This document shows, in pieces, positions 9,168-57,849 of a stretch of 64,000 nucleotides of DNA. The notes below the pieces were generated by a model. It was not told the origin of the DNA and ran no database searches. It saw only the letters and a list, made by a program, of their open reading frames with translations. Positions within the stretch are counted from its first letter, which is position 1; each line of letters starts with the position of its first letter. The translations under genes were made by a program, and so were the position numbers. This stretch comes from Mustelus asterias (Eukaryota): contig NW_027590175.1 in the NCBI RefSeq assembly GCF_964213995.1, positions 62,001 through 126,000 on the forward strand, in the 5' to 3' direction.

Positions 9168-9838
9168 ATGGAGAAACTGTGGAAATGTGGGGACTGTGGG
9201 AAGAGCTTCAATTACCCAAAGCTGAGAAAACGTTATCATTGTCACACTGGGGAGACACCATTCACCTGCTCTGTATGTGGGAAGCGATTCACTCAGTCAT
9301 CCCATCTCACTGACCATCAACTTGTACACAGTGATCAGAGACCTTTTAAATGCTCTGATTGTGAGAAGAGGTTTAAAAGCAAGAAGCATCTGGTAGCACA
9401 TCAGCTTGTCCACACTGGGGAGAGGCCGTTCCTCTGCTCTGTGTGTGGGAAGAGATTCAATCGGTCATCCCACCTTCTGACACATCAGCAAGTTCACACT
9501 GGGGAGAGACCATTCCTCTGCTCTGTGTGTGGTAAGGATTCATTCAGTCATCCCAACTTCTGAGACATCAGCGAGTTCACACTGGGGAGAGGCCATTTAC
9601 CTGCTCTGAGTGTGGGAAGGGATTCAGTCAGTTGTCCGACCTTCTGGTACACCAGCGAGTTCACACTGGGGAGAGGCCATTCACCTGTTCTGTATGTCGG
9701 AACAGCTTTGCTCAGTCATCTACTCTTCAGAGACACCAACGAGTTCATACTGGAGAGAGGCCATTCACCTGCTCTGAGTGTGAGAAGGGATTCATTCAGT
9801 TATCCGACCTTCTGAGACACCAGCGAGTTCACAAATGA
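9168..9838 (+). pseudogene. C2H2 ZNF copy B, frameshifted near 9535, first finger degenerate
   Basis: atcATGg start (MEKLWKC); fingers continue in another frame (9632-9838); a 1 nt loss could also be an assembly error. Confidence 0.75.
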
Positions 9839-13049: not shown

Positions 13050-13934
<885 letters not shown>

Positions 13935-14802: not shown

Positions 14803-17398
14803 TAATGTTCACCATTTTATATTCAAATCTGGGGGGGATAATGTTCACTGTTTTATATTCGGGTCTGAGTGGGATAATGTTCACTGTTTTATATTCGGGT
14901 CTGGGGGGGATAATGTTCACTGTTTTATATTCGGGTCTGGGGGATAATGTTCACTGTTTTATATTCGGGTCTGGGGGGGATAATGTTCACTGTTTTCTAT
15001 TCGGGTCTGGGGAATAATGTTCACTGTTTTATATTCGGGTCTGGGGGATAATGTTCACTGTTTTATATTCGGGTCTGGGAGATAATGTTCATTGTTTTAT
15101 ATTTGGGTCTGGGGGGGATAATGTTCACTGTTTTATATTCGGGTCTGGGGGATAATGTTCACTGTTTCATATTCGGGTCTGGGGGTGATAATGTTCACTG
15201 TTTTATATTCGGGTCTGGGGGGGATAATGTTCACTGTTTTATATTCGGGTCTGGGGGATAATGTTCACTGTTTTATATTCGGGTCTGGGGGGGATAATGT
15301 TCACTGTTTTATATTCGGGTCTGGGGGGATAATGTTCACTGTTTTATATTCGGGTCTGGGGGGGATAATGTTCACTGTTTTATATTCGGGTCTGGGGGTG
15401 ATAATGTTCACTGTTTTATATTCGGGTCTGGGGGATAATGTTCACTGTTTTATATTCGGGTCTGGGGGATAATGTTCACTGTTTTATATTCGGGTCTGGG
15501 GGATAATGTTCACTGTTTTATATTCGGGTCTGGGGGGGATAATGTTCACTGTTTTATATTCGGGTCTGGGGGGGGATAATGTTCACTGTTTTATATTCGG
15601 GTCTGGGGGGGATAATGTTCACTGTTTTATATTCGAGTCTGGGGGGGATAATGTTCACTGTTTTATATTCGGGTCTGGGGGAGAATGTTCACTGTTTTAT
15701 ATTTGGGTCTGGGGGATAATGTTCACTGTTTTATATTCGGGTCTGGGGGTGATAATGTTCACTGTTTCATATTCGGGTCTGGGGGTGATAATGTTCACTG
15801 TTTCATATTCGGGTCTGGGGGGGATAATGTTCACTGTTTTATATTCGGGTCTGGGGGGGATAATGTTCATTGTTTTATATTCGGGTCTGGGGGGGATAAT
15901 GTTCACTGTTTTATATTCGGGTCTGGGGGGGATAATGTTCACTGTTTTATATTCGGGTCTGGGGGATAATGTTCACTGTTTTATATTCGGGTCTGGGGGA
16001 TAATGTTCACTGTTTTATATTCGGGTCTGGGGGATAATGTTCACTGTTTTATATTCGGGTCTGGGGGTGATAATGTTCACTGTTTCATATTCGGGTCTGG
16101 GGGTGATAATGTTCACTGTTTCATATTCGGGTCTGGGGGGGATAATGTTCACTGTTTCATATTCGGGTCTGGGGGGGATAATGTTCATTGTTTTATATTC
16201 GGGTCTGGGGGGGATAATGTTCACTGTTTTATATTCGGGTCTGGGGGGGAGAATGTTCACTGTTTTATATTCGGGTCTGGGGGATAATGTTCACTGTTTT
16301 ATATTCGGGTCTGGGGGATAATGTTCACTGTTTTATATTCGGGTCTGGGGGGGATAATGTTCACTGTTTCATATTCGGGTCTGGGGGTGATAATGTTCAC
16401 TGTTTTATATTTGGGTCTGGGGGATAATGTTCACTGTTTTATATTCGGGTCTGGGGGGGATAATGTTCACTGTTTCATATTCGGGTCTGGGGGTGATAAT
16501 GTTCACTGTTTTATATTTGGGTCTGGGGGATAATGTTCACTGTTTTATAGTCGGGTCTGGGGGGGATAATGTTCACTGTTTTATATTCGGGTCTGGGGGG
16601 GATAATGTTCACTGTTTTATATTCGGGTCTGGGGGATAATGTTCACTGTTTTATATTCGGGTCTGGGGGGGTGATAATGTTCACTGTTTTATATTCGGGT
16701 CTGGGGGGGGATAATGTTCACTGTTTTATATTCGGGTCTGGGGGTGATAATGTTCACTGTTTTATATTCGGGTCTGGGGGGGATAATGTTCACTGTTTTA
16801 TATTCGGGTCTGGGGGGGATAATGTTCACTGTTTTATATTCGGGTCTGGGGGATAATGTTCACTGTTTTATATTCGGGTCTGGGGGGGGGATAATGTTCA
16901 CTGTTTTATATTCGGGTCTGGGGGGGGATAATGTTCACTGTTTTATATTCGGGTCTGGGGGTGATAATGTTCACTGTTTTATATTCGGATCTGGGGGATA
17001 ATGTTCACTGTTTTATATTCGGGTCTGGGAGGGATAATGTTCACTGTTTTATTTTCGGGTCTGGGGGGGATAATGTTCACTGTTTTATATTCGGGTCTGG
17101 GGGATAATGTTCACTGTTCTTTATTCGGGTCTGGGGGGGATAATGTTCACTGTTTTATATTCGGTCTGGGGGATAATGTTCACTGTTTTATATTCGGGTC
17201 TGGGGGAGATAATGTTCACTGTTTTATATTCGGGTCTGGGGGATAATGTTCACTGTTTTATATTCGGGTCTGGGGGGATAATGTTCACTGTTTTATATTC
17301 GGGTCTGGGGGGGAAAATGTTCACTGTTTTATATTTGGGTCTGGGGGGGATAATGTTCACTGTTTTATATTCGGGTCTGGGAGATAATGTTCACTGTC
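14803..17398. repeat. Minisatellite, roughly 70-75 copies of ataatgttcactgttttatattcgggtct(G)n, 34-38 bp
   Basis: Direct reading; no unique spacers; copy number estimated from length. Confidence 0.97.
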
Positions 17399-18725
17399 TG
17401 GGGTTTGTGAGCTCGGGTTGATTCTGCCTACGGTGCATTCTCGGTTATCAGAGCTCTCATTAAAAGCCCTAATTTCCAGTCAGTGACTGAGTTGTCTCTG
17501 ATGGGATGGAGAATCAGAGTGGGGGTAATGTGCTTCATGGACAGCGATGGGTGGGAGTGAGTATTAAATAAACCAGGACTACACCAAGTAATTTTGAGAA
17601 CATTGAAACCATCACAAAATATCACAGCATCATGTTGGAAAACAGAATACTTTATCTGAATCTTTGATCAATTTTGTTTGATTCAATATTGTGAGTGACT
17701 TGTTGGATTGCTGGTTATTTTCTAAAGGCAGCTCAGCACCATCATTTTGACCATCAACTCGGCCCTGGTAACTGCTGTTTTTTCTCTGTACCTTCTGTTT
17801 TAATTTTAAGTGGAACCTTAATATTTGCTTGGTCCACCAGCCGATTGATCTTTCCAGGGGTGTGTGTCTGAGAAATATACAACGAAAAACATTCTCTATT
17901 TACCTCCTGCATTGCTGCAGTAAATATACATTGTTCTGACTCTGCCAGCAGGGCTGTGGAATTAATTGGATCGATCTTAAAGAGAGCCCGGCTGGGCAGG
18001 ATAGAGTCACAGAGGTTTACAGCATGGAAACGTGAGCCAAATGGTTTCCATCTGTGATGTATCATTGCATAAAACAGAATATTCAGTCTCAGGAGAAAGA
18101 AAGTGAAATAAACCAGTTTCTGGGGGATTTACCCAATCAGTATGAGCACCTTCAGGAGAGCAGAGAGGGGGGGGAGGGGGGAAACCAGTGAGAAATGTTT
18201 TAAAAACTCGGGGTATTCCCACAGGAGAGCACTGGTTTAAATCAATTTTAGAAATAGAGAATGGCAGTGCACAAATTCAGAGGAATGTATTTTTAAAAAT
18301 TAATTGATCTCAATTGCACAAGATAATTTTCTAATATGTCTTTGATTGACAATGGCGCTGTTAATTCCCAGGTGCCCCTGCGGTTGTGAACGTGCCCTAT
18401 TCTTCCGGTGAAGCGGGCAGAGAGGGGAGTGATTTTTGGAGGGCAGAACTGGAAGATAAGCTGAATTTATTTTTACTTACTTTTTTCGGAGTTGTTTTTT
18501 TCCTGAGAAACAGGAAACCGGAAGTCAGCCGTAGGGAGACCTGGGACGGTTTTTTTTTGCCCACTAAATTTGAACGGGGAGGTAACCCGAGACTCTACAC
18601 GTGTAGAGTCTCCCACCCTCCCTCCTCCTCTAACCTAAAAAAAAGACTCGGTGTGAGAGCAGGTGAGCTTTCTTTTTCTTTTTCTTCTTTTCTCTTTCGT
18701 TTATTAGTTCGGGAAGTTAGCAGGG

Positions 18726-19649
18726 ATGTCAGTGCAGGCAGTGCAATGTTCCTCCTGTGGGATGTGTGAGGTGAGGGACACCATTAGTGTCCCAGCTGAG
18801 TACACCTGCAGGAAGTGCACCCAATTCCAGCTCCTTGAAGACCGTGTTAGGGATCTGGAGCTGGAACTGGATGAACTCAGGATCATTCGGGAGGCAGAGA
18901 CAGTTATAGATAAAAGCTACAGGGAGGTTCATACTCCTAGGAATGAGGATACTTGGGTGACTGTTAGAAAGGGTAAGAAGCAGACAGTGCAGCGATCCCC
19001 TGTGGCCGTTCCTCTGTATAACAAGTATACCGTTTTGGATACTGTTGGGGAGGGCGACTTACCAGGGGTAAGCCATGGGGTACAGATCTCTGGCACAGAG
19101 TCTGTCCCTGTTGCTCAGAAGGGAAAGGGGGGGAGGAGTAGAGCATTAGTCATTGGGAACTGCATAGTTAGGGGGACAGATCGGAGATTCTGTGAGAGCG
19201 AGAGGGACTCGCGGCTGGTGTGTTGCCTCCCAGGTGCCAGGGTCTTTGATGTCTCGGATCGTGTTTTCAAGATCCTTAAGGGGGAAGGGGACCAGCCCCA
19301 AGTTGTGGTCCACACAGGCACCAATGACATAGGTAGGAAAAGAGATGGGGATGTAAGGCAGAAATTCAGGGAGTTAGGGTGGAAGCTTAGAGCGAGAACA
19401 AATAGAGTTGTTATCTCTGGTTTGTTACCCGTGCCACGTGCTAGTGAGGAGAGGAATAGGGAGAGAGAGCAGTTGAACACGTGGCTACAGGAATGGTGCA
19501 GGAGGGAAGGATTTAGATACCTGGATAATTGGCGCTCATTCTGGGGTAGGTGGGACCTCTACAAACGGGATGGTCTTCACCTGGACCAGAGGGGTACTAA
19601 TATCCTGGGGGGGAAATTTGCTAATGCTCTTCGGGAGGGTTTAAACTAA
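18726..19649 (+). CDS. CR1 ORF1: Cys zinc finger, leucine zipper, SGNH-esterase-like domain
   Basis: CSSC...CRKC, heptad Leu repeat, IGNCIVRG (GDS position), HTGTND, DGLHL. Confidence 0.85.
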   Translation: MSVQAVQCSSCGMCEVRDTISVPAEYTCRKCTQFQLLEDRVRDLELELDELRIIREAETVIDKSYREVHTPRNEDTWVTVRKGKKQTVQRSPVAVPLYNKYTVLDTVGEGDLPGVSHGVQISGTESVPVAQKGKGGRSRALVIGNCIVRGTDRRFCESERDSRLVCCLPGARVFDVSDRVFKILKGEGDQPQVVVHTGTNDIGRKRDGDVRQKFRELGWKLRARTNRVVISGLLPVPRASEERNREREQLNTWLQEWCRREGFRYLDNWRSFWGRWDLYKRDGLHLDQRGTNILGGKFANALREGLN

Positions 19650-22525
19650 TTCGGCAGGGGGGTGGGAACCTGGATTTCTGCTCCAGTGTACAGGAGGATG
19701 TGAGTGGTGAGGTGATGAATAAGATTTCAAGGTCGCAGGAGTGTACCGGCAGGCAGGAAGGTGCTTTGAAGTGTGTCTACTTCAATGCCAGGAGCATCCG
19801 GAATAACGTGGGTGAACTTGCAGCATGTGCTGGTACCTGGGACTTCGATGTTGTGGCCATTTCGGGGACATGGATAGAGCAGGGACAGGCATGGTTGTTG
19901 CAGGTTCCGGGGTTTAGATGTTTCAGTAAGATCAGGGAAGGTGGTAAAAGAGGAGGAGGTGCGGCATTGTTAGTCAAGGACAGTATTACGGTGGCAGAAA
20001 GGATGTTTGATGAGGACTCGTCTACTGAGGTAGTATGGGCTGAGGTTAGAAACAGGAAAGGAGAGGTCACCCTGATGGGAGTTTTCTATAGGTCTCCGAA
20101 AAGTTCCAGAGATGTAGAGGAAAAGATTGCAAAGATGATTCTGGATAGGAGCGAAAGTAACAGGGCAGTTGTTATGGGGGACTTTAACTTTACAAATATT
20201 GACTGGAAATGCTATAGTTCGAGTACTTTCGATGGGTCAGTTTTTGTCCAATGTGTGCAGGAGGGTTTGCTGACACAGTATGTAGATAGGCCAACAAGAG
20301 GCGAGGCCACATTGGATTTGGTACTGGGTAATGAACCAGGCCAGGTGTTAGATTTGGAGGTAGGTGAGCACTTTGGTGATAGTGACCACAATTCGGTTAC
20401 GTTTACTTTAGCAATGGAAAGGGATAGGTATACACCGCAGGGCAAGTATTATAGCTGGGGGAAAGGAAATTATGATGCGATTAGGCGAGATTTAGGATGC
20501 ACAGGATGGGGAAGAAATCTGTAGGGGATGGGCACAATTGAAATGTGGAGCTTGTTCAATGAACAGCTACTGCGTGTCCTTGATAAGTATGTACCTGTCA
20601 GGCAAGGAGGTAGTGGTCGAGCGGGGGAACCGTGGTTTACTAAAGAAGTTGAATCTCTTGTGAAGAGGAAGAAGGAGACTTATGTAAAGATGAGACGTGA
20701 AGGCTCAGTAAGGGCGCTTGAGAGTTACAAGTTCGCCAGGAAGGAGCTGAAGAGAGAGCTAAGAAGAGCCAGGAGGGGACATGAGAAGTCTTTGGCAGGT
20801 AGGATCAAGGAAAATCCTAACGCTTTCTACAGGTATGTCAGGAATAAAAGAATGACTAGGGTAAGATTAGGGCCAGTCAAGGACAGTAGTGGGAAGTTGT
20901 GCGTGGAGTCTGAAGAGATAGGAGAGGCGCTAAATGAATATTTTTCGTCAGTATTCACACAGGAAAAAGACAATGTTGTCGAAGAGAATACTGAGATACA
21001 GGCTATTGGACTAGACGGGATTGAGGTTCATAAGGAGGAGGTGTTAGCAATTCTGGAAAGTGTGAAAATAGATAAGTCCCCTGGGCCGGATGGGATTTAT
21101 CCTAGCATTCGCTGGGAAGCTAGGGAGGAGATTGCCGAGCCTTTGGCTTTGATTTTTATGTCATTGTCTACAGGAATAGTGCCAGAAGACTGGAGAATAG
21201 CAAATGTTGTCCCCTTGTTCAAGAAGGGGAGTAGAGACAACCCTGGTAATTATAGACCAGTGAGCCTTACTTCTGTTGTGGGCAAAGTTTTGGAAAGGAT
21301 TAGAAGAGATAGGATTTATAATCATCTAGAAATTAATAATTTGATTAGGGATAGTCAGCACGGTTTTGTGAAGGGAAGGTCGTGCTTCACAAACCTTATT
21401 GAGTTCTTTGAGAAGGTGACCAAAGAGGTGGATGAGGGTAAAGCAGTTGATGTGGTGTTTATGGATTTAAGTAAAGCATTTGATAAAGTTCCCCACGGTA
21501 GGCTATTGCAGAAAATACGGAGGCATGGGATTGAGGGTGATTTTGAGATTTGGATCAGAAATTGGCGAGCTGTAAGAAGACAGAGGGTGGTGGTTGATGG
21601 GAAATGTTCATCCTGGAGTTCAGTTACTAGTGTACCGCAAGGATCTGTTTTGGGGCCACTTTTGTTTGTCATTTTTATAAATGGTCTGGATGAGGGCGTA
21701 GAAGGATGGGTTAGTAAATTTGCGGATGACACTAAAGTCGGTGGAGTTGAGGACAGTGGAAGGATGTTGCAGGTTACAGAGGGACATAGATAAGCTGCAG
21801 TGCTGGGCTGAGAGGTGGCAAATGGAGTTTGATGTGGAAAAGTGTGAGGTGATTCACTTTGGAAGGAGTAACAGGAATACAGAGTACTGGGCTAATGGTA
21901 AGATACTTGGTAGTGTGGATGAGCAGAGAGATCTCGATGTCCATGTGCATAGATCCCTGAAAGTTGGCACCCAGATTGATAGGGTTGCTAAGAAGGCGTA
22001 CAGTGTGTTAGCTTTTATTAGAAGAGGGATTGAGTTTCGGAGCCATGCTGTCATGTTGCAGCTGTACAAAACTCTGGTGCGGCCGCACTTGGACTATTGC
22101 GTACAGTTCTGGTCGCCGCATTATAGGAAGGATGTGGAAGCATTGGAAAGGGTGCAGAGGAGATTTACCAGGATGTTGCCTGGTATGGTGGGAAGGTCTT
22201 ATGAGGAAAGGCTGAGTGACTTGAGGCTTTTTTCGTTGGAGAGAAGAAGTTTAAGAGGTGACTTAATAGAGGCATTCAAGATGATCAGAGGATTAGATAA
22301 GTTGGACAGTGTAAGCCTTTTTCCTCGGATGATGATGGCTAGCACGAGGGGGCATAGCTTTAAATTGAGGGGTGATAGATATAGATCAGATGTCAGAGGT
22401 AGGTTCTTTACTCAGAGAGTAGTAAGGGTGTGGAATGCCTGCCTGCAACAGTAGTGGACTCGTCAACATGAAGGGCATTTAAAGGGTCATTGGATAAACA
22501 TATGGATGAGATTGGAATAGTGTAG
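19640..22525 (+). pseudogene. CR1 ORF2 (APE endonuclease + RT), disrupted
   Basis: NARS, GDFN, SDH endonuclease motifs; [27 protein letters not shown] motifs; in-frame TAG 20522-20524, frameshifts near 21750 and near the 3' end. Confidence 0.9.
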
Positions 22526-22614
22526 GTTGGATGGGTTTAGATTCGTTTCACAGGTCGGTGCAACATTGAGGGCCGAAGGGCCTGTACTGCGCTGTAATGT
22601 TCTATGTTCTATAG

Positions 22615-23025
22615 TCATTCCACAGGAGCCTATTGCGCAGGCGCAGTGCTGTATCTGGGGCATGCGCAGTGTCACTGCTCAGAGTCCTGAATGCGGGAGA
22701 CGCTTTTTTCAGCGGGTGAGTCGGTTGGGCTGCGGGAGAAGTGGAGCCGGGAGTTGGGGTAGGGAGGGAGCGAGCGGAGGCTTCACAAACATCCGCTGTA
22801 GGCTGCACGGCCCGAATCAGACCCTGCAGGTCCCGGGTTTACAGCTCCCAGGCTTTTATCTCGGGAACAGGCCCCGGTTATCGGCCGCCATCTTGTTTCA
22901 GCGGGGAAGGAGGGCACATGCGCTGCTGTCTGTGACGGGTCACAATGGGCGTGGTTTCGGGGGCTGGTTCAGAACCTCTATCTTCAGAGGGACAATAGGT
23001 AGCAGGGCGCATGCGCAGCTATCCA
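22615..23025 (+). promoter_or_regulatory. CpG promoter and first exon of ZNF copy D
   Basis: NRF1-like tgcgcaggcgca and gcatgcgca, YY1 gccgccatcttg, donor cgg|gtgagt at 22716. Confidence 0.7.
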
Positions 23026-23361
23026 AGAACATCGGAATAAGAATTCGAAACAGGAGCCCGTCATTCGGCCCATCGAGCCTGCTGCATCATTCAATAAGAT
23101 CATGTCTACTTTGCTACCCCCAGCCCGTCCATACCCTTAACTCTCTTGTGGATCAAAACCTCAGCTTTGAATATATTCAATGACCTGCCTCCAATCCTCA
23201 CTGGTGAAGACAGAGTTCCAAAGATCAACAACCCGCTGAGAGAAAAGATCTCTCTTCATCTTCATCTTAAATTTGAGATCCTTTATTTTTACTTGATTCC
23301 CACACCTGAGGAAACATCCTCTCAGCATCTACCTTGTCAAGCACCTTATATCATATGAATC

Positions 23362-23657
23362 ACAGAATCCCTACAGTGCAGAAGCAGGCCATTTGGCCCA
23401 TCGAGTCTGTGCCGACCACAATCCCACCCAAGCCCCATCCCCACAACCCCATGCATTTGACACGAGGGTCAATTTAGCATAGCCAATCCACCGAACCACA
23501 GTCTTTGGACTGTGGGAGGAAACCAGAGCACCTGGAGGAAACCCACACAGACAGTGCACAGAAAATGTGCAAACTCCACACAGACAGTGACCCAAGGCCG
23601 GAATTGAACCTGGGACCCTGGCGCTGTGAGGCAGCAGTGCTCGCCACCGTGCCGCCC
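23362..23657 (-). mobile_element. HE1 SINE (tail A) nested in a minus-strand CR1 3' fragment (~23045-23810)
   Basis: HE1 head, V-domain and tail; CR1-like sequence on both sides. Confidence 0.85.
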
Positions 23658-24212
23658 TTAAATTCCCAGATATTTCAATAGGATTACTTCTCAGTGTTCA
23701 AAACTCCAAAGAGTACAGGCCCAAGCTGCTCAACCTGAAAGATAAAACTCCTCATTTCAGGAATCAACCAACTGGATCTTCTCTGAACTGCCTCCACTGC
23801 AATTTTGTCCCAGCTAAAGTAATTCTGTGCCAGGTTAAAGGAGGAGGGAATGTTTGGAATTTCTGTTCTGGACAGATGCTGATGGATTTTGGAAACTCCC
23901 TTTACAGGGGGTTAGAAGGGAAAGATTTACACACAGCAAACTCCGACCAAAAGAAATGTTTGTCTGTCTTGAATTTCTAACCTTGAATTACACCTATAAC
24001 TTTCCTCATTTACAGGGACAAGATTTGAAGATTGCAACATTTTTCCCGGACACCAATCTCTCTGAGATCTTTGCAGATGTAGACTCCAGCGGATTTAAAA
24101 TGTTGAAAACAGTGAAATGGTTTTGGGGTGAGTGCTACTGAGCATTAAGTTAAATTTAGAGCATGCTCTGATTCCATGGATCTCGGGCTACTGTGACTCC
24201 TTTACCATGGAT

Positions 24213-27454: not shown

Positions 27455-28633
27455 ATGGAGAAACCATGGAAATGTGGGGACTGTGGGAAGAGATACAGAC
27501 TCCCATCCCTGCTGGAAGCTCATCGGCGCAACCACACTGGGGAGAGACCATTCACCTGCTCTCAGTGTGGGAAGGGATTCACTCGGTCATCCATCCTGCA
27601 GTCACACCAGCGAGTTCACACTGGGGAGAGGCCGTTCACCTGCTCTCAGTGTGGGAAGGGATTCACTCGGTTATCCATCCTGCAGAAACACCAGCGAGTT
27701 CACACTGGGGAGAGGCCATTCACCTGCTCTCAGTGTGGGAAGGGTTTCTCTCATTTATCCACCCTGCGCACTCACCAGCGAGTTCACACTGTGGAGAGGC
27801 CGTTCACCTGCTCTCAGTGTGGGGAGGGATTCACTTGGTCATCCAGCCTCCAGAGACACCAGCGAGTTCACACTGGGGAGAGACCGTTCACCTGCTCTCA
27901 GTGTGAGAAGGGATTCTGTGATCCATCCAGCCTGCTGAGACACCAGCGAGTTCACACTGGGGAGAGGCCATTCACCTGCTCTCAGTGTGAGAAGGGATTC
28001 TGTGATTCATCCAGCCTGCTGAGACACCAGCGAGTTCACACTGGGGAGAGGCCATTCACCTGCTCTCAGTGTGGGAAGGGATTCTGTGATTCATCCAGCC
28101 TGCTGAGACACCAGCGAGTTCACACTGGGGTGAGGCCATTCACCTGCTCTCAGTGTGGGAAGGGATTCACTTGGTCAAACCAGCTGCAGAGACACCAGCG
28201 AGTTCACACTGGGGAGAGGCCATTCACCTGCTCTCAGTGTGGGGAGGGATTCACTCGGTCATCCCGCCTGCTGAGACACCAGCAAGTTCACACTGGGGAG
28301 AGGCCGTTCACCTGCTCTCAGTGTGGGAAGGGATTCACTCGGTCATCCCACCTGCTGAGACACCAGCGAATTCACACTGGGGAGAGGCCGTTCACCTGCT
28401 CTCAGTGTGGGAAGGGATTCACTCGGTCATCCCACCTGCAGATACACCAGCGAATTCACACTGGGGAGAGGCCGTTCACCTGCTCTCAGTGTGGGAAGGG
28501 ATTCTGTGATTCATCCAGCCTGCGGATGCACCAGCGAGTTCACACTGGGGAGAGGCCATTCACCGGCTCTCAGTGTGGGAAGGGATTCAGTCTTTCATCC
28601 CACCTGCTGAGACACCAACGAGTTCACGAGTGA
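27455..28633 (+). CDS. C2H2 ZNF copy D, 14 fingers (last one has C>G), highly homogenised array
   Basis: accATGg MEKPWKC; open ORF; acceptor ttttacag at ~27104. Confidence 0.9.
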
Positions 28634-28725
28634 TGACAGGGGTTGGATTCTGCTGTTATTGTTTCTGCTCTCAATTCCATCCAGGACTGCATTTTGTTCA
28701 TTCTCACAGTTGGTCAATGGGGAGG

Positions 28726-29131
28726 ATGCTCTGATTGTGGGAAGGGATTCACTGATTCATCCGACATGCTGAAACACCAGAGAATTCATAATAGGGAGAG
28801 GCCATTTATCTGCTCCGAGTGTGGGAAGGGATTTACTCAGTCATTCAACCTGCTAAAACACCAGCCAAGTCACACTGGAGAGAGGCCATTCACTTGCTCC
28901 AGTTGTGGGAAGGGATTTATTGATTCATCCAGTCTGCGGAGGCACCAGCGAGTTCACACCAGGGAGAGACCATTCACCTCCTCTGATTGTGGCAAGGGAT
29001 TCAGTCAATCATCCAACCTGGTAAAGCACCAGCGAATTCACACTGGGGACAGGCCATTCACCTGCTCCGTGTGTGGGAAGGGATTCACTCAGTCACCTCA
29101 CCTGCTGAAACACCATCAGGTTCACGAGTGA
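28726..29131 (+). pseudogene. Second array of ~5 fingers downstream of ZNF D, in the same frame
   Basis: CSDC...HQVHE*; separated from D by TGA TGA and the tail peptide. Confidence 0.6.
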
Positions 29132-31009: not shown

Positions 31010-34000
31010 GTCAGGTGTGGTGAAAGCTTCAACCAATCATCTGGCCTTTTGGAACATGATTGCAGTCACAGGGAGATGCCATGGAAATGTGGGGATTGTG
31101 GGAAGAACATAAGAACTAGGAGCAGGAGTAGGCCATCTGGCCCCTCGAGCCTCATGGCTGATCTTTTTATGGACTCAGCTCCACTTACCCGCCCGCTCAC
31201 CATAACCTTTAATTCCTTTACTGTTCAAAAATGTATCTATCCTTGCCTTAAAAACATTCAATGAGGTAGCCCCCACTGCTTCACTGGGCAGGGAATTCCA
31301 CAGATTCACAACTCTTTGTGTGAAGAAGTTCCTCCTCAACTCAGTCCTAAATCTGCTTCCCCTTACTTTGAAGCTATGCCCCCTAGTTCTAGTTTCACCC
31401 GCCAGTCGAAACAACTTCCCTGCTTATCTATTCCCTTCATAATCTTATATAAGATCTCCCCTCATTCTTCTGAATTCCAATGAGTATAGCCCCAGTCTAC
31501 TCAGTCTCTCCTCATAAGCTAACCTCCTCAACTCCGGAATCAACCTCATGAATCTCCTCTGCACCCCCTCCAGTGCCAGTATATCCTTTCTCAAGTAAGG
31601 AGACCAAAACTGTACACAGTACTCCAAGTGTGGCCTCACCAACTGCAACATAATCTCGCTGTTTTAAAACTCCATCCCTCTTGCAATGAAGGACAAAATT
31701 CCATTTACCTTCTTAATTACCTGCTGCACCTGCAAACCAACTCCTTGAGATTCCTGCATAAGGACACCCAGGTCTCTCTGCACAGCAGCAAGCTGCAATT
31801 TTTTACCATTTATATAAGAGTCCATTTTGCTGTTATTCCTACCAAAATGGATGACCTCACATTTACCAACATTGTACTCCATCTGCCAGACCCTCGCCCA
31901 CTCACTTAGATTATCTATATCCCTTTGCAGACTTTCAGCATCCTCTGCACACTTTGCTCTTCCACCCATCTTAATATCTTCTGCGAATTCTGACACACTA
32001 CACTTGGTCCACAACTCCAAATCATCTATGTAAATCGTGAACATAAGAACATAAGAAATAGGAGTAGGCCATCTAGCCCCTGAAGCCTGCTCCGCCATTC
32101 AATCAGATCATCGCTGATCTGACAGTGGTTTCAGTTCCACTTACCCGCCCGCTCCCCATAACCCTTAATGGTTAAACATCTATCTGTCTGTGACTTAAAC
32201 ACATTAACAAGGTAGCCTCTACTGCTTCATTGGGCAGAGAATTCCAAAGATTCACTACCCTCTGGGAGAAGAAGTTCCTCCTCAACTCTGTTCTAAATTG
32301 ACTCCCCCGTATTTTGAGGCTATGCCCCCTGGTTCTTGTTTCCATTGTAAGTGGAAATAACATCGCTGCTTCTACCTGTCTAGCCCCTTCATTCTCTTAT
32401 ATGTCTCTATAAGATCTCCCCTCAACCTTCTAAACTCCAATGAGTACAGGCCCAGTCTACTCAATCTCTCCTCATAAGCTAACACCCTCATCTCCGGAAT
32501 CAACATGGTGAACCTTCTCTGTACGCCCTCCAAAGCTAATATATCCTTTCTTAAATAAGGGGACCAAAATTGTACACAGTACTCTAGGTGCGACCTCACC
32601 AGTACCCTGTAAAGTTGCAGCATGACCTCCCTGCTTTTATACTCCATCCCTCTCGCGATAAAGGCCAACATTCCATTTGCCTTCTTGATTATCTGCTGCA
32701 CCTGCTTCATGCACAAGGACCCCCAGGTCCCTCTGCACAGTAGTGATCCCAATTGCGGTCCCAACACTGATCCCTGAGGCACACCACTAGTCACTGATCG
32801 CCAACCAGAAAAACACCCATTTACCCCCACTCTTTGCTTTCTGTTAGTTAACCAATCCTCTATCCATGCTAATACATTACCCGTAACACTGTGCACCTTT
32901 ATCTTATGCAGCAGTCTTTGGTGCGGCAACTTGTCAAATGCCTCCTGGAAATCCAGATACACCACATCCACAGGTTCCCCATTGTCCACTGCACATGAAA
33001 TGTTCTCAAAGAATTCCACCAAATTAGTCAAACATGACCTGTCCTTCATGAACCCATGCTGTGTCTTACCAATGGGACAATTTATATCCAGATGTCTCGC
33101 TATTTCTTCCTTGATGATAGATTCAAGCATTTTCCCTGCTACAGAAGTTAAGCTAACCGGCCTATAGTTACCTGCCTTTTGTCATCTTTTTCAAACAGTG
33201 GTGTCACATTTGCTGTTTTCAATCTGCGGGAACCACCCCAGAGTCCAGCGAGTTTTGGTAAATTACCGCTAGTGCATTTGCTATTTCTCCCGCCATCACT
33301 TTTAGTAACCTGGGATGCATTCCATCAGGGCCAGGAGACTTGTCTACCTTTAGCACCATTAACTTGCCCAGCACTACCTCTTTCGTGATAATGATAATTT
33401 CTAGGTTCTCACCTGCCATAGCCTTCCTGTCATCAATTTTTGGCATGTTATTTGTGTCTTCCACTGTGAAGACTGACACAAAATACCTGTTCAATGCCTC
33501 AGCCATTTTCTCATTTCCAGTTATTACATCCCCCTTCTCGTCCTCTAAAGGACCAATGTTTACTTTCGCCACTCTTTTTCATTTTATATATTTGTAGAAA
33601 CTTTTGCTTTCTGTTTTTATATTCTGAGCTAGTTTACTCTCATAATCCATCTTACTTTTCTTTATAGCTTTTTTCGTGGCTTTCTGCTGACCTTTAAAGA
33701 TTTCCCGATCCTCTCGGTTCCCACTTATCTTTGCCACTTTGTATGCATTTTCTTTCAATTTGATACCTCCTTTATTTCCTTCGATATCAATGGCTGGTTA
33801 TCTCTTTTTCTACAGTCTTCTTTATCACTGGTATATACTTTTGCTGAGCACTGTGAAAGATTGCTTTGAAAATCCTCCACTGTTCCTCAATTGTCCCACC
33901 AGAAAGTTTTTGTCCCAGTCTACCTGAGCCAACTCCTCCTTCATCCCTTTATAGTCTCCTTAGTTTAAGTACAAGACACTGGTTTTGGATTTTACCTTCT

Positions 34001-40766: not shown

Positions 40767-41375
40767 TCAGCTGAACAGCCTCTCTCTACTGTGAACTCGC
40801 TGGTGTGTCTGCAAGTGAGATAATCGATTAAATCTCATCTCACACTCTGGACAGCTGAATGGCCTCTCCCCTGTGTGAACTCGCTCGTGTCTCAGCAGGT
40901 CAGATGAAGTAGTGAATGCTTTCCCACACTCAGAGCAGGTGAACGGTCTCTCCCTGGTGTGAACTCGCTGGTGTATCTGTAGGTTGTAGGAGAGAGAGAA
41001 TCCCTTTCCACATTCAGAGCAGGTGAATGGCCTCTCCCCAGTGTGAACTCGCTGGTGTGTCTGCAACTGAGATAACCGACTGAAACTCATCACACACTTG
41101 GAGCAGGTAAATGGCCTCTCCCCACTGTGAATTCGCTGGTGTATCCGGAGGTTGGAAGAGCGAGAGAATCCCTTTCCACACTGTGAACAGATGAACGGCC
41201 TCTCCCCTGTGTGAACCCGCTGGTGTGTCATTAAGTCGGATGAAGTAGTAAATCCCTTTGCACACTTAGTGCAGGTGAATGGTCTCTCCCCAGTGTGACT
41301 GCGCCGATGAATTTCCAGCTCCGAGGGGAATCTGAATCCCTTCCCACAATGTCCACATTTCCACAGTTTCTCCAT
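40767..41375 (-). CDS. C2H2 ZNF copy F, 7 fingers; ~2 decayed fingers follow the stop (to ~40630)
   Basis: accATGg MEKLWKC; open ORF; conserved acceptor at ~41604. Confidence 0.85.
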
Positions 41376-43900: not shown

Positions 43901-45577
43901 ATGGTGTGTGGGTTGGAGGAACTCGGAGGTGATGGGTTGCAAGGGAGTAGAATAGACAGTATTACAGTTGATAAGGAGGATGTGCAGGATATTCTGGAGG
44001 GTCTGAAAATAGATAAATCCCCTGGTCCGGATGGGATTTATCCAAGGATTCTCTGGGAGGCAAGAGAAGTGATTGCAGAGCCTCTGGCTCTGATCTTCAG
44101 GTCGTCGTTGGCCTCTGGTATAGTACCAGAAGATTGGAGGTTAGCGAATGTTGTCCCATTGTTTAAGAAGGGGAACAGAGACTTCCCCGGGAATTATAGA
44201 CCGGTGAGTCTCACTTCTGTTGTCGGCAAGATGTTGGAAAAAATTATAAGGGATAGGATTTATAGTTATTTGGAGAGTAATGAATTGATAGGTGATAGTC
44301 AGCATGGTTTTGTGGCAGGTAGGTCGTGCCTTACTAACCTTATTGAGTTTTTTGAGAAAGTGACCAAGGAGGTGGATGGGGGCAAGGCAGTGGACGTGGT
44401 ATATATGGATTTTAGTAAGGCGTTTGATAAGGTTCACCATGGTAGGCTTCTGCAGAAAATGCAGATGTATGGGATTGGGGGTGATCTAGGAAATTGGATC
44501 AGGAATTGGCTAGCGGATAGGAAACAGAGGGTGGTGGTTGATAGTAAATATTCATCATGGAGTGCGGTTACAAGTGGTGTACCTCAGGGATCTGTTTTGG
44601 GGCCACTGCTGTTTGTAATATTTATTAATGATCTGGATGAGGGTATAGTTGGGTGGATTAGCATATTTGCTGATGACACCAAAGTCGGTGGTGTGGTAGA
44701 CAGTGAGGAAGGGTGTCGTAGTTTGCAGGAAGACTTAGACAGGTTGCAAAGTTGGGCCGAGAGGTGGCGGATGGAGTTTAATGCGGAGAAGTGTGAGGTA
44801 ATTCACTTTGGTAGGAATAACAGATGTGTTGAGTATAGGGCTAACGGGAGGACTTTGAGTAGTGTGGAGGAGCAGAGGGATCTAGGTGTATGTGTGCATA
44901 GATCCCTGAAGGTTGGGAATCAAGTAGATAGGGTTGTTAAGAAGGCATATGGTGTCTTGGCGTTTATTGGTAGGGGGATTGAATTTAGGAGTCGTGGCGT
45001 TATGTTGCAACTGTACACAACTCTGGTGCGGCCGCACTTGGAGTACTGTGTGCAGTTCTGGTCCCCACATTACAGGAAGGATGTGGAGGCTTTGGAGAGG
45101 GTGCAGAGGAGGTTTACCAGGATGTTGCCTGGTATGGAGGGGAGATCCTATGAGGAGAGGCTGAGGGATTTGGGATTGTTTTCGCTGGAAAGGCGGCGGC
45201 TAAGAGGGGATCTTATTGAAACATATAAGATGATTAGAGGTTTAGATAGGGTGGATAGTGATAGCCTTTTTCCTCTGATGGAGAAATCCAGCACGAGGGG
45301 GCATGGCTTTAAATTGAGGGGGGGTAGTTATAGAACCGATGTCAGGGGTAGGTTCTTTACCCAGAGGGTGGTGAGGGATTGGAATGCCCTGCCAGCATCA
45401 GTAGTAAATGCGCCTAGTTTGGGGGCGTTTAAGAGATCCGTAGATAGGTTCATGGACGAAAAGGAATTGGTTTAGGTTGGAGGGTCACAGTTTTTTTTTT
45501 AACTGGTCGGTGCAACATCGTGGGCCGAAGGGCCTGTTCTGCGCTGTAATGTTCTATGTTCTATGTTCTATGTTCTA
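43901..45577 (+). mobile_element. Young 5'-truncated CR1 with uninterrupted RT-domain ORF (to TAG 45475)
   Basis: 524-codon open frame with [21 protein letters not shown]; (tgttcta)n tail; lies in the inferred intron of ZNF G. Confidence 0.93.
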
Positions 45578-46062: not shown

Positions 46063-46983
46063 ATGTGTTCTGTTTGTGGACAAGACTTCAACCAATCATC
46101 TGGCCTTTGGGAACATAATTGCAGTCACAACAGGGAGATGGCATGGAAGTGTGAGGATTGTGGGAAGGAATTCAATTACCCATCCCTGCTGGAAACTCAT
46201 CGACGCAGTCACACTGGGGAGAGGCCATTCACCTGCTCCCAGTGTGGGAAGGGATTCACTCAGTTATCCAGCTTACATATACACCAGAGGACTCATGCTG
46301 AGGAGAGGCCGTTCACCTGCTCCCAATGTGGGAAGGGATTCAATCAGTCATCCAACTTAGCAATACACCAGCGTGTTCACACTGGGGAGAAACCGTTCAG
46401 CTGCTCTGACTGTGGGAAGGGATTTTCTCACTCATCCACTCTGCTGATACACCAGCGAACTCACACTCAGGAGAGGCCATTCACTTGCTCCCAGTGTGGG
46501 AAGGGATTTGCTGACTCATCTACTTTGTTGAAACACCAGCGAGTTCACACTGGGGAGAGGCCATTCACCTGTTCCCAGTGTGGAAAGGGATTTGCTCAGT
46601 CAGCCACCTTGTTCACACACCAGCGAATTCACACTGGGGAGAGGCCATTCACCTGCTCTGTGTGTGGGAAAGGATTCAGTCGGTCATCAACTCTGCTGAC
46701 ACACCAGCGAGTTCACACTGGGGAGAAACCATTCATCTGCTCTGTGTGTGGGAAAGGCTTCAATCACTCATCCAACCTCGCAACACATGAGCGAATCCAC
46801 ACAGAGGAGAGGCCATTCACCTGCTCTGTGTGTGAGAAGGGATTCAATCAGTCGTCTAAACTAGCAATACATCAGCGGGTTCACACTGGGGAGAGGCCAT
46901 TCACCTGCTTGCAGTGTGGGAAGGGATACGTTACCTCATCGAATCTTCTGACGCACCAGCGAATTCACAACGAACTATTGTGA
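46063..46983 (+). CDS. C2H2 ZNF copy G, 11 fingers
   Basis: Open ORF; first in-frame ATG 46063 (track start 46015 is TTG); acceptor ttcacag at ~45911. Confidence 0.88.
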
Positions 46984-55400: not shown

Positions 55401-57849
55401 CAGTCTGAAAGACGTGCTGGTTAGGTGCACTGGCCACGCTAAATTCTCCCTCAGTGTACCCGAACATGTACTGGAGTGTGGCGACTCGGGGATTCTCACA
55501 GTAACTTCATTGCAGTGTTAACGTAAGCCTACTTGTGACACTAATAAATAAACTTTAACGCAGCCTTTCAGTCACGCATTCATCCCTCCGATCTGATCTG
55601 TCCTATACCTATTAGCATGTGGCTCAGGTAATAATTCAGAGATTATAACCATTGAGGTTCTGCTTCTTAATTTAGTGCTTAGGTCCTCATATCGACACTG
55701 AAAATCTCCTTCTTTATCTCTGTTGTTTATACCTACATTGACGAGGACAACTGGAACCTTCCCCTCCCCACTGAAATTTCTTCTCCAGCCCTGATCAGAT
55801 GTCCTGAACCCCGGCCCCAGACAGGCACCACAGCTGCCTTGATTCACATTCTTTACTGCAGAGAATGTGCCAATCCCTCTCACTATACTGTCCCCCATTA
55901 TCACTGCATTCCTTTTTGCTCCCCTCACTAGAATGGCTTCCTGTACCACAGTGCCATGGGTAATTGGTTCATCCATCCTGCAGCTCCCATTCATCCAAAC
56001 AAGCTGAAAATACCTCAAACTGGCTGGACAATGTTAAAGGCTAAGGCTCCTGTCTGTGAGTTCCCTTATCTGTCTCACTCTCCTGTTCCTGACCACTGAC
56101 CAAATCAGCAGACCCTGTGCCAAGAAGTGTGACTGCTCCCTGATACAAAGAATCCAGGTAACTTTCCCCCTCCCTGATGCATTGCAGTGTCTGTAGTTCA
56201 GCCTCCAGCTCATAAACTCTGAACCAGAGCTGCTTGAACTTCACTTACTGCAGACATGGTTGCCCTGGATCAAACTGACAGCCAGGAGCTCCCACATGCT
56301 GCAGCTGTGACACATCTTTAATGTGTGCGAATAAACTGTTTAATTATTTTACCTAATTACATATTTTATTTTTGTTTTCAAGTATTTTAGTTTTTAAGTA
56401 TTTTATTAACCTTACCACCAGTTGCTGTACTTTTTTAATCCTTAAGAATAGAATAAACCGTAGTCACTTCGCAGATCCTCACCAAAAATCTAGCTTCTTC
56501 TCCTGTCGAAGAGTAAGATCACTTCCTGACGGCTGAGAAAGTTAGAAAGCAAAACAGCACCTCTTTCCCTTTCTTCTCTAACTCCCTTAATTACCCAACT
56601 CCCAGAACTCTATTCTAAGCTACATTCAAGTGATGCCGGTTCAGAGCTGTTTCTGAGCTGCAGATTCGATACAATACTCACTTGCAGACATGGACATCAA
56701 GGCCTGTATGGGTCTCCAGGCCATCATGCACACCATCATGATAGGGAGGATGGAGATGGTGTTGCCAGCCATGTACATGATGAACAGATTCATGGGCAGC
56801 TGTTTCAATGGGCCCAAGGCAATGTCCCAGCAGCGCTGAAAACAGAAAGTGAGCAGGGTATCAGTAAAGGGGGCCGGTTAGGGGAGGCCATATACTGATC
56901 TTATACCCAGGCCTTGAAGTAAGCATGATGATTAACCCTTTATCACACAGGCTGCTGTGGTTCACCAAGGTACTTCACCACTGTGGACAAACCAGGGGCG
57001 TTGTCAGTCACACACTAAAGACACATTCAAATCCAACTTACTTTCTCAACCAGGATCCAGTCTGTTTCTTGGACACAGATGTCTGGCAGCTGTTTGTCCG
57101 AATATGCGACTGGGCATATGGAGTCTCTCTGGCCACACTGTTGATCACGGCTCCTGTGAGAAACAGAAAACACAAATTGGTCACCCTTTCAAGACCTTCT
57201 TTAAAGAGGGAGTCTCTCTGTTGAGGACCCCAACGTGGTGGCAATAGTGCCAGCACGAACTAAAGCTTGGGCAAACCTCGGACACACACTGCCGTTGTGT
57301 CCACTGAACTGCCAGGGGAATGGAGAGATGCAGAAGTGGATTAGTGTCAATTGATAATCAGGGTGCCAATCCACTTGCCCTCCATTTAGGGACAAAGTGA
57401 CAAATCACCAGATGTACCAAATTGTATCTTGAAAACAAACACTGCGGGACATTGAGAGAGATCCAGTTCAGCACCCGGCCCTGGAAACGAGCAATCGTTC
57501 CTCCAACCACCACCGCAGTTGGCACCTGATCAGGTGGAGGGGCTGAAACCAAAAGGGCATCTCAGGGTCATGACCTGGGGGATTTGAGGGGCTGCTTTGT
57601 GCTGAGGAGCTCGGTGAGGGGTAAAAGAGGCGTGAAAAACCCGGGGTTGGGAAGTTTTGGGTTGGTGCCACATCCCCGGGTCAGTGTGCGGTGGCCTCCC
57701 CTCAGGAGAGACGGGCTGACCCGGCTTGCCTCCTTCTCGAGCCCCCGGCTTCCCGCGCGGCCTCCGCACCTGCTGCTGCCGCTCAAGTTAAGCTCGAGGG
57801 TCCACTTGTGCCAGCGCGCGCCGTGGACAAGCCCCGCCCCTGCCGCCAT
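52435..57849 (-). CDS. EMC4: ER membrane protein complex subunit 4; exons 57849-57770, 57153-57042, 56835-56682, 53317-53157, 52470-52435; 180 aa
   Basis: All introns GT-AG with matching phases (80+112+154+161+36 = 543 nt); translation includes [29 protein letters not shown] and [19 protein letters not shown], ending GGGLVL*. Confidence 0.95.
52550..52805. repeat. Imperfect ~40-46 bp pyrimidine-rich tandem repeat in EMC4 intron 4
   Basis: Recurrent aattcccaaagatatccccactttcc. Confidence 0.8.
53645..54498 (+). mobile_element. CR1 3' fragment nested in an older minus-strand CR1 (53370-53645, 54500-54750)
   Basis: [19 protein letters not shown] motifs; tail gggccgaagggcctgtt. Confidence 0.85.
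55010..55557. mobile_element. Back-to-back V-SINEs: HE1 minus 55010-55322 (tail A) and plus 55322-55557 (tail B)
   Basis: Motifs in opposite orientation. Confidence 0.85.
55560..56320 (-). mobile_element. CR1 ORF1 (esterase-type) relic
   Basis: ELEAELQTL zipper, [21 protein letters not shown]. Confidence 0.75.

Follow-up and report, generated by a model that had tools for sequence, protein, structure and literature searches.

A 64,000-nucleotide stretch of the genome of Mustelus asterias (contig NW_027590175.1, positions 62,001 to 126,000 of the forward strand; referred to in its full length as the window) contains a copy of a CR1 long interspersed nuclear element (LINE). This element's first open reading frame (ORF1), encoding an SGNH esterase, ends on the slippery heptamer T_TTA_AAC directly before its stop codon, and the second (ORF2), encoding an endonuclease and a reverse transcriptase (RT), is in the -1 frame. 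A comparison of this junction among related copies suggested that CR1 LINEs with an esterase-type ORF1 likely make ORF2 by programmed -1 frameshifting, as an ORF1p-linker-ORF2p fusion. The deeply conserved, recoding-type signal at the CR1 junction is itself real, and -1 frameshifting is its simplest account because the heptamer is exact, the ORF2 frame is closed upstream of it, the linker is free in length and kept in phase, and no ATG is general. The original prediction, made from the letters of the window, had interpreted the junction as a frameshift site; this interpretation is supported by the present comparison, from which we infer the shift itself.

Architecture of the ORF1/ORF2 junction

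The features of the junction are as follows; "families" are the eight families of copies from the shark genome, designated by F numbers.

19622..19624, + strand: stop codon TAA of the -1 (ORF2) frame, 5 codons upstream of the heptamer, limiting entry into the ORF2 frame
19637..19643, + strand: second, overlapping heptamer G_GGT_TTA, modal in only 4/8 families (preceding codon GGT)
19640..19646, + strand: slippery heptamer T_TTA_AAC in X_XXY_YYZ phase (ORF1 codons GAG GGT TTA AAC TAA)
19647..19649, + strand: ORF1 stop codon, adjoining the 3' end of the heptamer (modal TAA in three families and TAG in five)
19647..19783, + strand: open -1-frame linker between the heptamer and the N of the endonuclease's NARS motif (codon at 19784)
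19657..19667, + strand: conserved G-tract, +11 to +21 after the heptamer; a putative stimulator for which a conserved pairing partner is lacking
19715..19717, + strand: first in-frame ATG of ORF2 in the family of the window copy, with no equivalent in most other families

As predicted, ORF1 ended on an in-phase T_TTA_AAC, exactly at 19640-19646, followed by the stop codon at 19647-19649. ORF2 had been placed in the -1 frame, open through to the endonuclease, and this frame indeed opened at 19625, read FKLIRQGGGNLDF... and reached the endonuclease domain (Pfam PF03372/PF14529). Since the 7-mer TTTAAAC is common in the 64 kb (10 on the + strand and 14 on the - strand), the weight of the heptamer rests on its position and conservation. 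A scan of 926 codon positions of the element for canonical in-phase heptamers returned only the overlapping one at the junction, TTTAAAC itself lying at the scan edge.

Conservation of the junction at the DNA level

Own-genome searches and one metagenome scan yielded 212 loci; 195 were anchored without their last 16 residues, and 17 unanchored loci were dropped. After exact duplicates were merged, 152 copies in the eight shark-genome families were obtained (one indel-bearing copy was placed in F1 by hand), and these families were 61-78% identical to each other over the 3' end of ORF1. TTTAAAC was found at the aligned columns in 145 of the 152 copies. The junction was visible in 10 of the 30 metagenome loci (referred to as bird-type, being similar to a named swallow protein): nine had the heptamer, and eight had TAG directly after it.

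The longest run invariant among the eight families was TTTAAACTA (9 nt), and the runner-up among the 315 columns was 5 nt. The junction codons TTA and AAC were modal in 8/8 families, in spite of TTA accounting for only 15 of the 144 Leu codons of ORF1. Of the 28 upstream sites whose amino acid is invariant and degenerate, 3 kept a single codon, and none of the 8 Leu sites did. Furthermore, the codon preceding TTA, which encodes G, D, S, R or T, had T as its third base in all eight families, and the third base was kept in 1/23 equally variable sites. The heptamer was therefore conserved beyond the flanking synonymous sites, the comparison on which the original prediction had staked itself, and was conserved as DNA because the eight other invariant Leu residues change codon and the slip-site Leu never does.

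The ORF2 frame, linker and start codons

The modal offset from the heptamer to the endonuclease Asn varied among families: 144 nt in F1 (30/33), 201/204 nt in F4 (5/7), 153 nt in F5 (3/4), 162 nt in F7 (19/25), 144/150 nt in F18 (23/25) and 240 nt in F19 (7/9). All of these values were multiples of 3, with the endonuclease in the -1 frame. The endonuclease of F6 was in this frame in 14/22 hits, F3 was too decayed for determination of the phase, and the -1 frame was in phase and open in 4/4 bird-type loci. Thus, the phase expected by the original prediction was conserved across shark CR1 families, despite linker lengths of 144-240 nt. The linker was free of stop codons in 79 of the 83 in-frame shark copies, the mean number of stops in the other two frames being 0.7-5.3. 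In modal copies, the -1 frame was closed at 5 codons upstream of the heptamer (1 codon in F19), and an ATG between this stop and the heptamer was found in only 1/97 copies.

The ATG at 19715, from which reinitiation had been considered possible, is present in the window, but did not hold as a general start: in F4, F5, F6, F7 and F18 (5/8 families), the stretch up to the endonuclease Asn contained no in-frame ATG in most copies. The first in-frame Met was within the endonuclease in F5, F6, F7 and F18 and in 3/5 F4 copies.

The region downstream of the heptamer

GGGGG-NN-GGGA was found at +11 to +21 in 8/8 shark families, and most bird-type loci have the tract in an identical register. At +11, the third base is invariably G under differing residues, and GGG was used in 79 of the 206 Gly codons of ORF1. 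Since three of the invariant Gs of the tract occupy third positions in the -1 frame, the constraint appears to be at the nucleotide level. Contigs from sequencing runs of other organisms were similar up to 19666-19672 and divergent beyond.

The prediction of a pairing segment in this region did not survive the comparison. The two proposed stems exist in the window (GCAGGGG at 19654-60 with TTTCTGC at 19675-81, and CTGGA at 19670-74 with TCCAG at 19682-86), and were intact in 20 near-duplicates only; at least one pair was broken in 13/13 other in-register F1 copies, three F1 copies of shifted register having been set aside. As a pseudoknot, the two stems would have a loop 3 of 0 nt. The fold downstream of the heptamer in the window copy was no better than those of shuffled sequences (z -0.64), and no Rfam match was found at E values up to 1 within 18300-23700. 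A conserved stem-loop or pseudoknot 5-9 nt downstream, which characterizes canonical -1 frameshift sites, was not found; the signal is not of the coronavirus type because a conserved unpaired G-tract occupies the place of the stimulator.

Quadruplex predictions varied among 18 copies: the G4Hunter score was 1.2 or higher in 12, ViennaRNA predicted a quadruplex in four, and there are only two G-runs in the conserved core. F19 (L201-L212) has an extended G-tract, and a three-tier quadruplex was predicted directly after the heptamer.

A C-rich motif in the 5' untranslated region (UTR; 18611-18621) is complementary to the G-tract in the family of the window copy, and has a counterpart in the 5' UTRs of F5 and F6, not in those of the other families shown. 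This pairing was the top match in the window and in one F5 copy; as a partner of the G-tract, the motif was rejected because, among up to eight copies per family, the pairing was not common to the families and barely outperformed shuffled tracts.

C-termini of ORF1 homologues

A total of 214 homologues of ORF1 were collected, and 147 were anchored by the alignment of the catalytic D-x-x-H to a query cut before its last 13 residues. The L-N terminus was found in 88 of the 147, and its frequency followed the identity: 43/50 at 50% or higher, 12/18 at 40-50%, 27/55 at 35-40%, 6/22 at 30-35% and 0/2 below. Named homologues ending in L-N were from sharks, rays, an eel, a frog, lizards, a snake and a swallow. 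The residue preceding L-N was codable with a final T in 87/88, and the residues at the two positions before it were not codable in this manner in 35 and 29 of the 88, respectively. L-N keeps to the stop codon, with the spacing from the catalytic Asp varying between 22 and 39 residues.

Nine of the 59 anchored homologues with other termini ended in Q-G-N, which is compatible with the heptamer G_GGA_AAC, as judged from the protein ends alone:

P0112, P0124, P0126, P0128, P0135, P0136, P0138, P0149, P0210: distant esterase ORF1s ending in Q-G-N

Further distant esterase ORF1s ended in F-F-R/H/N, E-N or K-N, and these termini, together with Q-G-N, may mark alternative shift sites. The viral-contig and genome-contig scans made for the Q-G-N group detected no relative, and the own-genome search with P0135 (Q-G-N type) returned the L-N family F19 instead. 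It is possible, albeit doubtful, that retrovirus-like frameshifting in CR1, the dominant LINE clade of non-mammalian vertebrates, predates the shark/bird split and is driven by the stop codon and a short G-tract (protein-bound or quadruplex) in place of a folded RNA, a distant sister group having swapped the heptamer (Q-G-N, G_GGA_AAC).

Proposed mechanism and alternative explanations

In programmed -1 frameshifting, most ribosomes would terminate when they reach the stop codon of ORF1, and ORF1p would be released. A minority would pause on UUA AAC, holding Leu-tRNA and Asn-tRNA, then slip to UUU AAA and continue in ORF2, with the predicted trans-frame reading ...G-L-N-L-I-R-Q-G-G-G-N..., and this minority would set a high ORF1p:fusion ratio, similar to that of Gag/Gag-Pol. 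The pause would probably be caused by the adjacent stop codon and by the G-tract, located where the mRNA enters the ribosome (through protein binding or as a G-quadruplex), and a hairpin or pseudoknot would probably play no part in it. Reinitiation may be used additionally in families that have an ATG near the stop, and both routes may coexist.

Several points weigh against this proposal. Folds of the 80 nt downstream gave z values of -1.2 to +1.4 in 18 copies, and the RNAalifold consensus for 15 representatives was empty. No family-wide long-range pairing partner was found among up to eight copies per family over 1450 nt downstream, the 3' UTR being covered for the window copy only. Heptamers without a stimulator usually shift poorly. 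The families share ancestry, near-duplicates account for 20/36 F1 copies, and the L-N end was part of most retrieval queries, by which copies retaining L-N were favored. Termini other than L-N were found in 59/147 anchored homologues, and L-N overlapping the F-K-L of the -1 frame could keep some of the same bases fixed. The slip and the fusion, like the roles of the G-tract and stop codon, are each inferred from sequence comparison. Start codons also exist close to the junction in some lineages: a linker ATG in F1 (29/29) and F19 (7/7), an in-frame ATG 2 nt past the stop in 6/10 bird-type loci, and, together with the heptamer, a TAATG stop-start overlap in F3 (L061-L068), the sister family F4 having no ATG there. 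A start codon overlapping or adjoining the stop is absent in 7/8 shark families; the missing ATG alone does not dispose of reinitiation, since L1 ORF2 is translated independently of its own AUG (PMC1965478, PMC5009743).

These start codons speak for termination-reinitiation, the main rival, in which ribosomes would terminate after ORF1 and resume translation in the -1 frame, from an AUG or non-AUG codon close by, to produce free ORF2p, the heptamer and G-tract acting as a pause or tether. Such a route, which has been proposed for SART1 and L1 (PMC5972666, PMC3894237), is a real alternative for lineages with a near-stop ATG, and because L1 tolerates loss of the AUG. The core of the termination upstream ribosome-binding site (TURBS), UGGGA, is furthermore found within the G-tract in 7/8 shark families. 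However, TURBS are located 40-90 nt upstream of the stop (PMC5972666), and the conserved UGGGA is downstream here and absent in F19 and most bird-type loci. There is no start position common to the families, most copies of five of which have no ATG before the endonuclease, the sisters F3 and F4 differ, and reinitiation does not require a precise X_XXY_YYZ in which the base preceding the Leu codon is invariably T. We consider reinitiation to be unlikely as the general explanation. A constraint at the protein level only, by which the C-terminal Leu-Asn of ORF1p and the N-terminal F-K-L...G-x-G of ORF2p fix the bases and the slippery appearance is incidental, would agree with the invariance of L306 and N307 in 36 aligned proteins (a set chosen for reaching the end of ORF1), and dual coding can fix third positions. 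On the other hand, L-N tracks the stop codon rather than the fold, its distance to the catalytic Asp varying over 22-39 residues, and the third base G at +11 is invariant under different residues. Dual coding itself implies a frameshift, because F-K-L needs entry into the -1 frame 1-5 codons upstream, and no start codon is present there; the constraint alone is highly improbable.

ORF2 may also be expressed by a route at the RNA level, from a transcript spliced between a 5' UTR donor and an AG at the junction, or initiated internally from a TTTAAA and G-box promoter. Several families have a motif resembling a splice donor a short way before ORF1, the heptamer is followed by CTAG or CAG, and CR1 forms without ORF1 exist (PMC13343379). 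Nevertheless, there is no polypyrimidine tract and no junction AG common to the families (TAA in three families; F7 and F19 without CAG), and an RNA of this kind would require an ATG all the same. Contigs of five runs or reads of one did not reveal any GT..AG joint to the junction, a weak negative because the donor region had been passed over as repetitive, and neither an indel nor a splice joint recurred at the junction in run contigs, mostly of related organisms. This route appears to be the least probable of the explanations considered.

Comparison with known systems

The CR1 junction resembles coronavirus U_UUA_AAC and retroviral gag-pol sites (PMC5009743) in the heptamer, its phase, the upstream structural ORF and the polymerase in the -1 frame, as well as in having a conserved element at the distance of the stimulator; U_UUA_AAC ranks with the heptamers most prone to shifting (PMC5009743). 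It differs from them in the lack of a conserved pseudoknot or stem-loop and of a protease for the fusion, and in being located in a host element without long terminal repeats (non-LTR). The stop codon directly after the heptamer is another difference, and such a stop is also found in Rous sarcoma virus and barley yellow dwarf virus. The frameshifting of the arterivirus PRRSV (porcine reproductive and respiratory syndrome virus), stimulated by the proteins nsp1beta and PCBP (PMC5009743), likewise involves no RNA structure, and a short tract rich in a single base is found just downstream of the shift site. CR1 differs in that its tract is G-rich and the shift would be -1 on a canonical heptamer. 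The tract of PRRSV is C-rich.

Among LINEs, SART1 with UAAUG coupling and L1 with unconventional reinitiation (PMC5972666, PMC3894237, PMC1965478) share the bicistronic RNA and the low ORF2p:ORF1p ratio, and differ in that a separate ORF2p is made or thought to be made. In Paramecium non-LTR groups, a +1 shift or reinitiation has been suggested (PMC5405496). The passages of these four articles describe no LINE with a conserved -1 heptamer; the main texts of PMC13343379 and PMC3905857 contain no mention of "frameshift", and their passages are silent on the translation of ORF2. Programmed -1 frameshifting in CR1 would be a known mechanism in an element class for which no earlier report was found. 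A full-text literature search returned no paper on CR1 frameshifting, its scope not extending to the 1997 descriptions of chicken and turtle CR1 or Repbase notes. The 1997 descriptions reportedly mention close or overlapping ORFs.

If the proposal is correct, a non-LTR element makes a fusion of the Gag-Pol type, and the real RT protein bears an esterase domain. CR1 ORF2 annotations from the first ATG would then be wrong for many families, and CR1 constructs would require the native junction. The site would also provide a natural frameshift signal that lacks a folded stimulator; a 2016 review anticipated natural quadruplex-stimulated frameshifting, with no such case known. A 30-nt cassette makes the frameshift signal directly testable.

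The CR1 copy and its surroundings in the window

18370..22612, + strand: CR1 LINE copy, near full length (5' end approximate, estimated from contig coverage together with a loose end at 18371)
18726..19649, + strand: ORF1, 307 aa, with an N-terminal Cys motif, SGNH esterase (Pfam PF13472, E 2.3e-12) and C-terminus G-L-N-stop
19625..22454, + strand: ORF2 (endonuclease and RT), broken (Pfam PF03372, PF14529, PF00078)
near 22598-22612, + strand: short repeat tail at the 3' end of the CR1 copy

The SGNH esterase in ORF1 and the apurinic/apyrimidinic (APE) endonuclease and RT in ORF2 (broken) identified the copy as an esterase-type CR1. This organization, including the short-repeat 3' tail, is that of canonical vertebrate CR1, and CR1 LINEs with an esterase ORF1 are abundant in sharks and rays (PMC13343379, PMC3905857). 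The assignment to CR1 rather than L2 was based on the ORF1 homologues, the 3' tail and the description of chondrichthyan L2 elements as having no ORF1 (PMC13343379). The window copy is dead, because ORF2 is interrupted by an in-frame stop at 20522-20524 and by a frame change within the RT near 21700-21790; a full ORF2 product from it is impossible. It was one of 24 matches at 99-100% identity on small contigs (40 scored), and appears to be carried within a duplicated unit of a zinc-finger gene cluster.

Between 18660 and 18720, the donor-like motif CAG/GTGAGC is followed by a pyrimidine tract, an AG and then the ATG of ORF1. Similar motifs are found upstream of ORF1 in F3, F5, F6, F7 and F18, and a 5' UTR mini-intron or a U1 site in shark CR1s is possible. 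Other CR1 fragments in the window, at 43937-45564 (+), 32729-33764 (-) and 55566-55964 (-), do not contain the ORF1/ORF2 junction. C2H2 zinc-finger arrays are located at 400-1302, 9267-9832, 13062-13790, 27557-29125, 40791-41357 and 46066-46884, and a minisatellite occupies 14803-17397 (unit of ~35-36 nt, ~73 copies, 93% matches).

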